A stretch of DNA of 64,000 bases, taken from IMG/VR virus record IMGVR_UViG_2563366960_000002, one strand, 5' to 3'. Origin of the DNA: a virus. Lineage: Duplodnaviria > Heunggongvirae > Uroviricota > Caudoviricetes. Below are positions 16,099 to 17,818 of this stretch, one piece after another. The position numbers were made by a program, and so were the translations under genes. Numbering within the stretch: the first letter of the stretch is position 1; each line of letters opens with the position of its first letter. Below the pieces are notes generated by a model that worked only from the letters and a program-made list of their open reading frames with translations, had not been told where the DNA came from and did not search any database.

Positions 16099-16244
16099 CC
16101 TCTCACTCCATTATTTAACGAATAAAAAAGCTGCGGTGCCGGGTACCTCCCGGTGTCCTTTGGCTGGTTATCCACCGTGGACGGGGAAACAAGGAGAAAT
16201 GAATGGACTGATATAACCATTTCCCCGCGTGCGCTTAGCCGCAT

Positions 16245-16360
16245 TCACCGCAATGGTAAGAGCACTTGGCTGGCTGGGCGGCGATGACGCCTGTATGCAT
16301 TTGGTGATCCGGTTCTGCTTCCGGCATTCGCTTAATTAGCCAAATACTCTTAACGTTGCG
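16245..16360. repeat. imperfect long hairpin of the tRNA-island repeat family
   Basis: CACCGCAATGGTAAGAGCACTTGG pairs imperfectly with GCCAAATACTCTTAACGTTGCG about 60 nt away; shares the GGTAAGAGCA core with the other hairpins. Confidence 0.4.
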
Positions 16361-16361
16361 C

Positions 16362-16448
16362 TGGCGGAGAGTAATGGAATCGAACCATCATCGCTTGCGC
16401 TATGGGACGGTTTTCAAGACCGCTTGAGCACCATGCTCCCTACTCTCC
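16362..16448 (-). tRNA. tRNA-Ser (UGA anticodon), type II with long variable arm
   Basis: 87 nt; anticodon loop CTTGAAA; T-arm GATGG-TTCGATT-CCATT; acceptor GGAGAGT/ACTCTCC; encoded CCA. Confidence 0.7.
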
Positions 16449-16581
16449 CGTTATTGTGGCGACCGGTGCTGATCTCCGGCTTGCGGTTATTTCAGACTCT
16501 CACGGGCGTTTAATTGCCCCGCCGAACAGCTCTTTTCCGCAATAGCTGCAATGTCTTTCGCGCATCAGCCTGCGCATTCAC

Positions 16582-16673
16582 CACAACGTTGAGAACACTG
16601 GTTGTCACGCGCAACGCAACATTTATTCGTAGATTGGGATATGACCCCGTTACGCCAGTGTTCTCAACGTTGT
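16582..16673. repeat. perfect 19-bp inverted repeat around a 53-nt loop
   Basis: ACAACGTTGAGAACACTGG (16583-16601) is the exact reverse complement of CCAGTGTTCTCAACGTTGT (16655-16673). Confidence 0.6.
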
Positions 16674-16800
16674 AGTGCCGGTTACGGTTCCGGCCAGGCC
16701 TCTTCCTCAACGGGGTGTTCTCCATACGGACTACCGTTTATTGGTCGTTCCTGCGGTTTATGTTGTGAAGCCAGATGCTTATCTTCTGGTTGCTTCAAAG

Positions 16801-16900
16801 AGCTGCACTTCATCACAACGGTAAGAGCATTTATGGCTCGCATCGCGGGAAAAAGCCCACGGTAGAGAGTCGAACTCTACAAATGCTCTTACCTGTTGTG
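16801..16900. repeat. tRNA-fragment-like long hairpin (13+6 bp stem) enclosing a T-arm-like stem-loop
   Basis: CACAACGGTAAGAGCATTT pairs with AAATGCTCTTACCTGTTGTG; the loop on the - strand contains GTAGAG-TTCGACT-CTCTAC. Confidence 0.5.
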
Positions 16901-16901
16901 T

Positions 16902-16977
16902 TGGTGCCGGTTAACGGGATCGAACCGCTGACCATTCGCTTACAAAGCGACTGCTCTACCAACTGAGCTAAACCGGC
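16902..16977 (-). tRNA. tRNA-Thr (UGU anticodon)
   Basis: 76 nt GCCGGTTTAGCTCAGTTGGTAGAGCAGTCGCTTTGTAAGCGA...GGTTCGATCCCGTTAACCGGCACCA. Confidence 0.85.
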
Positions 16978-16981
16978 AATT

Positions 16982-17068
16982 TGGTGGGGAGTGATGGAGT
17001 CGAACCACCCGAGTCGCAATGACAGTAGATTTACAGTCTACCCCGCTACCCCTACGGACTAACTCCCC
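16982..17068 (-). tRNA. tRNA-Tyr (GUA anticodon), type II
   Basis: 87 nt; anticodon loop CTGTAAA; long variable arm; 7-bp acceptor GGGGAGT/ACTCCCC; encoded CCA. Confidence 0.8.
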
Positions 17069-17073
17069 TAAAT

Positions 17074-17150
17074 TGGCGATGGTGGGTGGATTCGAACCAC
17101 CGACCGACAGCTTAGAAGGCTGCTGCTCTATCCTACTGAGCTACACCATC
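17074..17150 (-). tRNA. tRNA-Arg (UCU anticodon)
   Basis: 77 nt GATGGTGTAGCTCAGTAGGATAGAGCAGCAGCCTTCTAAGCTG...GGTTCGAATCCACCCACCATCGCCA. Confidence 0.85.
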
Positions 17151-17818
17151 ACTTGCCGGGTACGTCTCCGGCGAGGGCTTCCACCTCCGTATGCTTTTCG
17201 GCGCACCGCGCCCTGGCTGCAATTCGGTAACAGGGGATGCACAACCCTGGCTTCCAACGTGATTAGCGCCTTCAGCATGACGGGATATACCCGTAGTAGG
17301 ACGTTATCTTCAAATTGCTAAAAGCAATTGCTGTTACGCAGAATGAAAAAGGACGTAACAGGTAAGGACGCTGACCAAAAAGATGGCCCCTTCTCGCTCA
17401 TCTGGTTAATCGAACCAGCGCCCTTACCTGTTGTGCCTCCCCGTTCCCTAATACACAGACGGGGACACTCTGCGGTCGATTTTTTGACGGGGGACGACTC
17501 ATACCCCGTGGCGTCTGGCTTCTTAGGCCGCTACCATCATCAGATCATCGTTTGCATTTACTTTAATGGTCAGTTTCTAAACCGCCGCAAAGTCGCTAAC
17601 CATGACGAAAACCCTGAAAAAAACGCCCACCCGAAGATGGGCAAACTGGAAGCTCGTAACGCACTTCGGTGTTGCCACTTAGGCGTATGGTCAACCTGGC
17701 AACTCGGCGTCATGATGGGGAAGGAGTCACTACCCCGCCATACTTGCCGCCGCGCCTGTCGCGGCTAACAGCTAAATCGCTCTATAAATCACGATTCATT
17801 GATGCGATATTACACTAA

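Follow-up and report, generated by a model that had tools for sequence, protein, structure and literature searches.

Hairpins of the transfer RNA island of a P1-like phage-plasmid as putative RNase III processing stems of an unannotated phage family

The 64,000-nucleotide (nt) stretch of DNA analysed here (hereafter the window; IMG/VR virus record IMGVR_UViG_2563366960_000002, Caudoviricetes) belongs to a P1-like phage-plasmid and carries an island of transfer RNA (tRNA) genes interspersed with four long hairpins, H1 to H4, which are the subject of this report. The 1.5 kb around the island are 99.9% identical to the Escherichia coli plasmid pAVS0578-B (IncY). On one side the island is flanked by dmt (17827-20091, minus strand) and on the other by the gene for a DnaB/Ban helicase (13301-14671, minus strand), an interval that occupies the same place as the C1-controlled ban operon of P1; ARAGORN and Rfam together identify five minus-strand tRNA genes in the window. 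Most likely, the hairpins between these genes form a new family, hitherto unannotated, of an element whose kind is already known, the ribonuclease III (RNase III) processing stems of phage polycistronic transcripts.

The original prediction, made from the letters of the window, had noticed at least three long hairpins among the tRNAs; there are in fact four (Table 1). H2 is the strongest hairpin of its size class across the window, with arms of 23 nt that are 96% complementary, and it contains the perfect 19-base pair (bp) stem that had been pointed out (16583-16601 paired with 16655-16673). The stems of H1 and H4 measure ~20-22 bp with one bulge each, and the T-arm-like element GTAGAG-TTCGACT-CTCTAC is present inside H1 as described. 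As judged by folding z-scores, all four fold far better than shuffled sequence. The core that they share occurs six times in the window with up to three mismatches, against 0.4 occurrences expected, and every copy is confined to positions 16249-17434. Two of the hairpins abut a tRNA gene, H1 starting 1 nt past the CCA of tRNA-Thr and H3 1 nt past that of tRNA-Ser; the interior of H3 is ~90% conserved downstream of the tRNA-Ser of phage rV5, where it lies within another closing stem.

Comparison with related loci (referred to below by L numbers) indicates that H1 to H4 belong to a widespread family of ~21-bp stems that phage annotation has passed over. Equivalent arms lie at equivalent places in P1, P7, D6, RCS47, SJ46 and Ro157c2, P1 having counterparts of H4, H1 and H2, and the tRNA islands of unrelated SSU5-like IncFIB phage-plasmids bear a family hairpin directly after tRNA-Asn, tRNA-Thr and tRNA-Ser. 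In lambdoid prophages, among them L038, L036, L017, mEp460 and an Stx2a phage, the element sits in the leader immediately downstream of the gene for the cI-type repressor, and in the virulent Klebsiella phage UPM2146 (Ackermannviridae) the hairpins lie within 3.3 kb of non-coding DNA upstream of the tRNA cluster; the element was not found in lambda. The family pattern, CACAACG-N55-85-CGTTGTGGTGAA, fixes no letters other than those of the 7-bp base and of the five positions that follow downstream; it matches 113 IMG/VR contigs, and 94 of the 117 pattern matches among the loci retrieved extend to stems of at least 14 bp, where the pattern demanded only 7.

No Rfam 15 family covers the hairpins at gathering or permissive thresholds in the window and 26 related loci, the only matches being spurious ones of microRNA precursors to the long stem. 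RefSeq shows no annotation under the element in 1108 E. coli genomes, and in the literature we found neither an earlier description of these hairpins nor a P1 transcriptome. A genome-wide scan with the pattern returned mostly chance matches and unrelated inverted octamer arrays and provides no basis for taxonomic statistics; its true family members came only from Pantoea, a few uncultured or unidentified loci and similar sources. The octamer arrays (L139-L252, for example L188, L175 and L222) are long hairpins made of inverted 8-nt units (CACAACGN / CACGACGG) in metagenome-assembled genomes that carry the labels Planctomycetota, Sumerlaeota, Propionivibrio and Methanocella, and share with the family only the word CACAACG.

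Conservation within the family bears the mark of a structure maintained in RNA. Positions 1-7 of the stem are nearly invariant (CACAACG paired with CGUUGUG), positions 10-12 read A/G-A-G, and pairing falls off after about bp 21; positions 8, 10, 12-16 and 19 swap among different Watson-Crick pairs. An alignment restricted to the arms of 43 distinct copies, with each interior exchanged for a linker, has 94.7% of its cells paired as against 81.1% in shuffles, none of 500 of which reached the observed value, and both-sided changes occur at 13 of the 21 pairs. When the partner columns were slid against each other as a control, pairing was 36-55%. Stem positions that depart from Watson-Crick pairing are G·U in 97 cases and A·C in 6 on the sense strand (66 and 6 in non-redundant arms), the sense strand being the one that bears the downstream GUGAAU motif, which is also the strand of the neighbouring tRNAs and early operons. 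This excess of G·U over A·C therefore points to one strand, the transcribed one, as the strand that folds on itself, with selection acting on RNA, and it argues both against a site for a protein that binds double-stranded DNA and against neutral relics. The orientation of the hairpins always agrees with that of the flanking tRNAs or of the leftward early operon, and their interiors are unrelated in sequence and length across the family. Downstream of most copies come GUGAAU and a 5-bp hairpin whose loop is of the GGCUGA type; an alternative small stem-loop can substitute for this hairpin. The 5-bp hairpin covaries as well, pairs 1, 3 and 4 of its five changing on both sides.

The position of the stems relative to tRNA genes is likewise conserved. 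In all 18 related loci with a tRNA-Thr, its CCA is followed by a hairpin at a distance of 1 nt; after tRNA-Ser in related loci the distance is 1-2 nt, and in pKp46564-1 the hairpin and the CCA of tRNA-Asn share 2 nt, so that the repeats do mark tRNA boundaries in relatives, the check that had been proposed for them. Other family members follow an intrinsic terminator that resembles the 3' end of DicF, follow a small CCGG-loop-CCGG hairpin, or lie ~10 nt past a promoter-like -10 element.

The segments next to the hairpins have the character of RNA modules, here termed X, Y and Z. Module Y is 81% identical to L034, and in RCS47 it has changed its place relative to X as one block. Module Z, which follows H3, appears to be a sub-threshold relative of the STnc100/PasD small RNA, scoring 35.1 bits against the STnc100 model (RF02076; gathering score 47, E 5.6e-6) over model positions 31-147 only. 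It matches the core of that model, UGGUGAAU ... CACCGGGAGGCACCCGGCACC, and the GGUGAAU found after most hairpins corresponds to the start of an STnc100-kind module, whereas the family hairpins themselves fall outside the matched region of the model. A recent preprint links STnc100 to PasD, a small RNA discovered via Hfq-bound RNA interactions (bioRxiv 10.64898/2026.05.13.724894). A small open reading frame (ORF) starting from the GUG after each hairpin was considered and rejected, the frames not being conserved (GTGAATGACGGATGA, for example, stops after four codons).

We consider it reasonably probable that H1 to H4 are RNase III processing stalks, co-transcribed with the tRNAs from the C1-controlled promoter of the ban operon, and that their arms double as exchange junctions. 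RNase III is suggested because the length of the helix is conserved and the interior is not, as would suit an enzyme that measures double-stranded RNA; its substrate-binding valley holds ~22 bp (PMC6212723). The host enzyme would bind the helix, which spans about two turns, and cleave each arm near the middle (~bp 11-12), a cleavage that would free the upstream tRNA with a ~12-nt 3' trailer for exonuclease trimming, set the 5' end of the downstream small-RNA-like module (GUGAAU and small hairpin), and uncouple the stability of the RNA module from that of the downstream messenger RNAs (mRNAs) of the SPFH gene and ban. Trimming of tRNA 3' trailers by the normal 3' exonucleases is an established pathway.

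One member of the family, in the prophage Qin of E. coli K-12, has already been characterised experimentally, without recognition as part of a family. Gene order in Qin is dicA, ydfABC, hairpin, ~125 nt, dicF, a module starting GUGAAUGCGG, and dicB. The hairpin, between ydfC and dicF (L379 21173-21258; NC_000913.3 ~1649172-1649257), has the base CAUAAC/GUUGUG, an irregularity at positions 8-9, AAG at 10-12, a stem of ~21 bp and an unrelated interior; the 97 nt that begin 5 nt past its 3' end are 82% identical to positions 17667-17764 of the window, and module Z finds a match to its start in the spacer that follows dicF. As related in bioRxiv 10.1101/2023.04.14.536235 where it cites Faubladier et al. 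1990, DicF is cut from the polycistronic dicBF RNA, RNase E yielding the 53-nt form, and a 190-nt form whose 5' end is made by RNase III is lost in an rnc mutant. Counting 190 nt back from the annotated 3' end of DicF leads to ~L379 21246, in the 3' arm of the Qin hairpin, ~12 nt from its base and in the middle of the 21-bp helix. Qin and the island thus have in common an early prophage operon built of small-RNA modules, a hairpin of family architecture and homologous flanks; they differ in that the Qin hairpin precedes a small RNA rather than a tRNA and has no GUGAAU after it. To our knowledge this hairpin has never been described as one of a repeated family. Among the roles that the original prediction had offered for the repeats, that of processing signals is the best supported, given the covariation, the 97:6 ratio of G·U to A·C, the adjoining tRNA 3' ends and the coincidence of the Qin hairpin with a published RNase III-dependent cleavage.

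Two further systems provide points of comparison. The early and late sites of T7 (R0.3, R1.1 and others) are repeated stem-loops between the units of a polycistronic transcript, at which host RNase III cuts to give discrete RNAs; the units are mRNAs, and in a characteristic internal loop a single strand is cut, whereas the island stems separate tRNA and small-RNA units and have an invariant base and variable, sometimes branched interiors. The tRNA gene metY is freed from the metY-nusA-infB transcript by an RNase III cut just downstream (Regnier & Grunberg-Manago 1989, as cited in PMC5371410). The likeness lies in a tRNA co-transcribed with mRNAs, and in a stem just 3' of it whose cleavage by RNase III sets the fate of the downstream mRNA, and the difference in that metY has a single-copy chromosomal site, whereas the island stems form a repeated, horizontally exchanged family. 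We know of no sequence relationship between the metY site and the island hairpins.

Evidence that modules are exchanged at the arms comes from long blocks of near-identity. RCS47 has the order Thr-hairpin-X-hairpin-Y-H2, as against Thr-H1-Y-H2-X-Ser in the window, and the blocks of homology between the two (97.8% and 98.5% identical) begin in 3' arms; SJ46 carries a hybrid composed of the 5' arm of H2 and an H3-type 3' arm. Positions 16600-16454 of the window (3' arm of H2 and module X) share 95-98% identity with the leaders close to cI in Stx2a_WGPS2 and mEp460, a homology that stops exactly at the start of tRNA-Ser. Part of an H2+X query is carried by 1108 of 5426 complete E. coli genomes, in which chromosomal copies start at query positions 81-94 (the 3' arm) and many of the copies on plasmids break off at 118-121, where the small hairpin ends; further junctions lie inside tRNA bodies. 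Near-identical arms, together with the motif that follows them, would serve as short-homology junctions for the swapping of tRNA and small-RNA modules, the shared 20-40 nt of identity (arm and GUGAAUGCG...) being enough for ordinary short-homology recombination. The suggestion that the repeats are recombination scars at cassette boundaries therefore holds as far as junctions in the arms are concerned (RCS47, lambdoid leaders and the 5426 E. coli genomes), but these are conserved functional stems rather than inert scars.

Several observations weigh against RNase III stalks with exchangeable arms. RNase III, an enzyme of little sequence specificity, leaves the invariant 7-bp base and GUGAAU unexplained; they may reflect common descent, recombination or a second factor, and since the copies were gathered with patterns that fix the base, conservation of the latter is partly by construction. 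Position 9 of the stem is usually mismatched (24 of 43 copies) and H1 and H4 contain a bulge, defects of a sort that can restrict or redirect RNase III, and H3 has an imperfect stem with a z-score of only -2.7. The Qin cut site is placed from the size of an RNA (190 nt) rather than from a nucleotide-level coordinate such as the published positions 813/814. We infer cleavage of the P1-like copies by RNase III, as well as transcription through a terminator-like hairpin (17624-17643) that lies between the promoter and the island. As for exchange, 12 of 32 breakpoint clusters fall in arms or post-arm motifs, versus 21% expected (p 0.025), a count biased by the many loci that were fetched through the motif; the exchange claim rests on the long high-identity blocks rather than on this enrichment test.

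Table 1. Features of the tRNA island and its leader in the window, in the direction of transcription of the minus strand.
Feature	Coordinates	Strand	Description	Basis or note
Bivalent C1 operator / ban-operon promoter region	17809-17836	minus		likened to P1 Oban a/b annotation, homologous place
Leader segment	17667-17764	minus	P1 'dicF-like region'	82% identity to K-12 Qin L379 21263-21359
Intrinsic-terminator-like hairpin	17624-17643	minus	TGCCCATC-TTCG-GGTGGGCG then U7	between operator and tRNAs
tmRNA-like resume context and tag frame	17523-17562	minus	AGUAAAU GCA AAC GAU GAU CUG AUG AUG GUA GCG GCC UAA, read as ANDDLMMVAA and stop	RF04321 below threshold
Hairpin H4	17352-17434	minus	CACAAC-A-GGUAAGGGCGCUG ... 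CAGCGUCCUUACCUGUUACG, interior degenerate T-arm-like	z -5.85
tRNA-Arg(UCU)	17074-17150	minus	chimeric	ARAGORN, Rfam, alignment
tRNA-Tyr(GUA)	16982-17068	minus		ARAGORN, Rfam; closest to tRNA-Tyr of rV5-like phage
tRNA-Thr(UGU)	16902-16977	minus		ARAGORN, Rfam
Hairpin H1	16814-16900	minus	bulged A after CACAAC; interior with T-arm-like stem-loop (16862-16880) and second small hairpin	z -5.85
Module Y	16678-16813	minus	starts AUGAAGUGCAG, ends with tRNA-Thr-3'-end-like remnant CCGUAACCGGCAC	between H1 and H2
Hairpin H2	16579-16677	minus	23-bp stem, one mismatch	z -8.92
Module X	16454-16578	minus	GUGAAU, small hairpin GCGCA-GGCUGA-UGCGC (16560-16575), ~100 nt, CCGG-AGAUCAGCA-CCGG hairpin just before tRNA-Ser	alignment
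tRNA-Ser(UGA)	16362-16448	minus		ARAGORN; homologous to tRNA-Ser of rV5, P7, D6
Hairpin H3	16249-16360	minus	imperfect stem	z -2.7
Module Z	16132-16252	minus	from GGUGAAUGCGGCUAAGCGCA to CACCGGGAGGUACCCGGCACCGCA then U-run	homologous to Qin dicF-dicB spacer
CAU tRNA	14951-15026	minus	ileX-like in P1 annotation	ARAGORN, Rfam, P1 annotation

Other readings of the hairpins were weighed against RNase III processing. A structured RNA of another kind, such as a minihelix for RNase P or the CCA enzyme, a stabiliser of RNA ends, a nuclease decoy or the site of a base-reading protein, would give a meaning to the two things that RNase III does not explain, GUGAAU and an invariant base whose 7 bp equal the length of an acceptor stem. 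It would also accommodate the textbook T-arms inside H1, the Stx2 phage copy and L348, the hairpins that flank a tmRNA-like coding piece (see below), and several lambdoid contigs in which the hairpin, ~10 nt past a promoter-like -10 element, would be a 5'-terminal stem; the C4 RNA of P1 is an RNase P substrate. We nevertheless regard this as unlikely: the hairpins have no CCA/discriminator-like 3' tail and no G3:U70, of 38 distinct interiors just 2 contain a strict T-arm, and T-arms lie now on one side of the interior, now on the other, and a stem whose length is kept while its interior is not fits a helix-measuring enzyme. Nor does any hairpin score as a tRNA, either among the Rfam matches at E<=10 (RF00005) or in ARAGORN output, which leaves the earlier idea of derivation from tRNA halves weak; a tRNA origin is possible for some copies and is not a general property of the family. 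If the stems are instead functionless, decaying relics of duplicated tRNA or transfer-messenger RNA (tmRNA) genes, the D-arm-like GGUAAGAGCA and the T-arm-like stem in H1 would be their remains, as would the tRNA-Thr-3'-end-like remnants (AACCGGCAC) just before H2, by analogy with the tyrT-linked RtT repeats. RtT RNAs (RF00391) are likewise repeated structured RNAs of a tRNA operon, with a T-arm-like stem and pieces of a tRNA 3' end, and are released by processing of the tRNA primary transcript; they differ from the island stems in sequence and fold and are tandem duplications of one locus, not shared between phage groups, and none of the window hairpins matched RF00391 in the Rfam search. Compensatory changes at 13 of 21 pairs and a 21-bp helix retained across four unrelated phage groups speak for purifying selection on structure, and neutral decay would not keep the asymmetry between G·U and A·C, so that we give relics little chance. 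Four tandem RtT repeats were met in L096 (13011-13632; 49-56 bits), a viral contig that also has a family hairpin.

Elements acting at the DNA level, that is recombination sites or small mobile palindromes (attC-, MITE- or REP-like) that move tRNA and small-RNA cassettes, would account directly for a module order that varies among relatives with junctions in the arms and for the SJ46 hybrid. The attC sites of integrons are imperfect inverted repeats of 57-141 nt at cassette boundaries, with conserved outer ends and a variable centre, that fold single-stranded, and the hairpins resemble them in having conserved outer ends with AAC...GTT, variable centres and lengths of 70-115 nt. Their ends, NCACAAC and GTTGTGG, differ from the attC consensus (RYYYAAC/GTTRRRY) at one and two positions, respectively. 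A 97:6 ratio on the transcribed strand speaks against a double-stranded DNA site but is compatible with single-stranded folding of that strand; in the island, the folded strand is the transcribed sense strand, and the adjacent small hairpin covaries as RNA too. Neither the ORFs between 13500 and 20500 nor the annotation of the matching plasmid include a recombinase, although no integrase profile search was made; in the SSU5-like L009 a site-specific integrase lies ~1.8 kb from the island. The neighbours of the island differ among phage families, and no flanking target-site duplications were seen by eye. The attC reading is less favoured, as the end consensus only partly fits and no integron integrase is evident, and MITE, REP and ERIC palindromes were rejected because the copies are restricted to 16249-17434 in the window, occupy equivalent leader positions elsewhere and show no duplications; DNA-level elements as a whole seem to us quite unlikely. 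Finally, antitermination signals, either nut-like (boxA and boxB) or put-like RNAs for terminator readthrough, are suggested by a 3' arm, UGCUCUUAC, that resembles boxA, by the small hairpin that follows at nut-like spacing, by leaders that contain terminators, and by positions just downstream of cI-proximal early promoters in lambdoid contigs in which no N-like gene was seen. The boxA-like bases are, however, locked in a helix and covary with the opposite arm, so that they evolve like a stem rather than like an unpaired site for a protein; in the context met most often, the terminator precedes the hairpin instead of following it; lambda, with its own N leader, lacks the element; and put RNA, two side-by-side stem-loops of ~70 nt (PMC9378689), differs in architecture from a single long closing stem with a variable interior. 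Covariation, position relative to terminators and architecture led us to reject the nut and put readings, and antitermination in general is very improbable.

In the leader of the island, a perfect C1 operator, ATTGCTCTAATAAATTT, lies at 17820-17836 on the minus strand, with an inverted copy bearing two mismatches at 17809-17825 on the plus strand, an arrangement that resembles the bivalent Oban of P1. The strong terminator-like hairpin stands ~190 nt downstream of this operator and upstream of the four island tRNAs and the CAU tRNA; either the tRNAs need readthrough or the hairpin has a different role. A simple scan found no sigma-70-like promoter within the island. The perfect operator from which the original prediction had derived one operon is thus present; since the terminator-like hairpin separates it from the tRNAs, the single operon is no more than plausible.

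Of the five tRNAs, which had all been placed within 16240-17450, only Arg-UCU, Tyr, Thr and Ser-UGA fall in that interval; the CAU tRNA belongs to the same island ~1.3 kb further on, past an SPFH-domain gene (15054-15881), and all five do lie between dmt and the Ban helicase gene. For tRNA-Ser(UGA) the Rfam model matched was that of tRNA-Sec, at 41.8 bits, under the gathering score of that family. P1 has, as the original prediction had said, fewer tRNAs, namely Asn, Thr and Ile-CAU; P7 and D6 have Asn-Thr-Ser-CAU, Ro157c2 has Asn-Tyr-Thr-CAU, and several IMG/VR contigs have Arg-Thr-Ser-CAU. In P1 and pKp46564-1 the slot of the chimeric tRNA-Arg(UCU) is filled by the P1-type tRNA-Asn, to which the chimera is identical in acceptor stem and T-arm; its D-loop A20 and anticodon arm align with phage tRNA-Arg(UCU), a mosaic that suggests recombination within tRNA bodies. 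In the 37 window ORFs of at least 200 codons, AGA, AUA, ACA and UCA are used 4.8, 10.6, 15.9 and 13.8 times per 1000 codons, which is about twice the E. coli K-12 average and would suit a compensating role of four of the five tRNAs in codon usage; the label of rare-codon tRNAs is reasonable for these four (AGA, AUA, ACA and UCA), and not for tRNA-Tyr, whose codons are not rare.

In P1, the ORFs plp and upl (L001 3123-3692, corresponding to ~16580-16900 of the window) run antisense to the tRNAs, over the 3' end of trnT, H1 and H2. Neither P1 Plp and Upl nor the antisense ORF of the window has a Pfam match, and plp and upl are probably not real genes. Elsewhere in the window, at 39215-39424 on the minus strand, the C4 antisense RNA (RF01695, 76.7 bits) lies beside isrK (RF01394, 58.5 bits), as expected of P1 immI; the pair of C4 and isrK is also present in mEp460, and isrK in the Stx2a phage locus.

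Between the terminator-like hairpin and H4 lies a module that resembles the coding part of a tmRNA. Its resume context, AAAGUAAAU-GCA-AAC-GAU, matches phage permuted tmRNAs that ARAGORN calls at default settings, and the tag leader scores 24.1 bits against the permuted tmRNA model (RF04321; gathering score 47). Eight tag variants were found, all of 10 codons, starting with AND and ending with AA or VA: ANDDLMMVAA (P1, as in the window), ANDDLMMAAA (P7), ANDDLMLAAA, ANDDLMLQAA, ANDDLMLMAA, ANDDVVLMAA, ANDEQFLAVA and ANDNTFLAVA (UPM2146); ANDDLMLAAA, ANDDLMLMAA, ANDDVVLMAA and ANDEQFLAVA occur in contigs that share the flanks of the tag. A 14-mer scan for the tag context returned mostly noise and was filtered by the tag frame. 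No tRNA-like domain with a CCA end was found at 17523-17643, where ARAGORN makes no call at default settings; at 80% thresholds it makes a tag-leader call that uses the terminator hairpin as 5' tRNA-like domain together with the T-arm-like portion of H4. In L136, L306, L329 and L348 a homologous hairpin of the H4 type comes after the tag module, and in non-P1 loci a family hairpin stands on both sides of the module. To judge from these sequences, the module would be either a relic or a working, diverged tmRNA-like RNA. In the cI-proximal leader of the lambdoid L036 (6446-6680), a family hairpin with a 140-nt interior is directly followed by GCGGGTTCGACTCCCGCCGCACTACCA and then by a short frame ending in AVA; GCGGGTTCGACTCCCGCCGCACTACCA closely resembles the T-arm, acceptor strand and CCA of the 3' end of E. 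coli ssrA.

A bolder proposal, which we put forward as doubtful, is that the hairpins would link RNA-gene cassettes, each a stalk and a small RNA, into an array exchanged horizontally among enterobacterial phages that are otherwise unrelated (P1-like, SSU5-like, lambdoid and Ackermannviridae), with the stalk base and GUGAAU directing both processing and exchange and the tag forming part of a working, highly diverged two-piece tmRNA-like RNA that interferes with host ribosome rescue or protein tagging. If true, the array would be a non-coding-RNA counterpart of the integron that uses host RNases and short-homology recombination, and its small RNAs would include tRNAs, DicF-like, STnc100/PasD-like and tmRNA-like tag RNAs.

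For P1-like phages, the family makes some 1.2 kb of 'empty' or mis-annotated DNA readable as tRNA and small-RNA modules parted by a common, putative processing stem. If confirmed, processing at these stems would account for the maturation of tRNAs embedded in a P1-like mRNA operon, would allow phage small-RNA modules to be recognised by sequence and structure in the genomes of lambdoid, SSU5-like and Ackermannviridae phages, and would name the physical junctions of phage tRNA trading; the long-known RNase III site of dicBF would join a conserved family. The tRNA repertoire bears on codon adaptation, and possibly on escape from tRNA-targeting defences.

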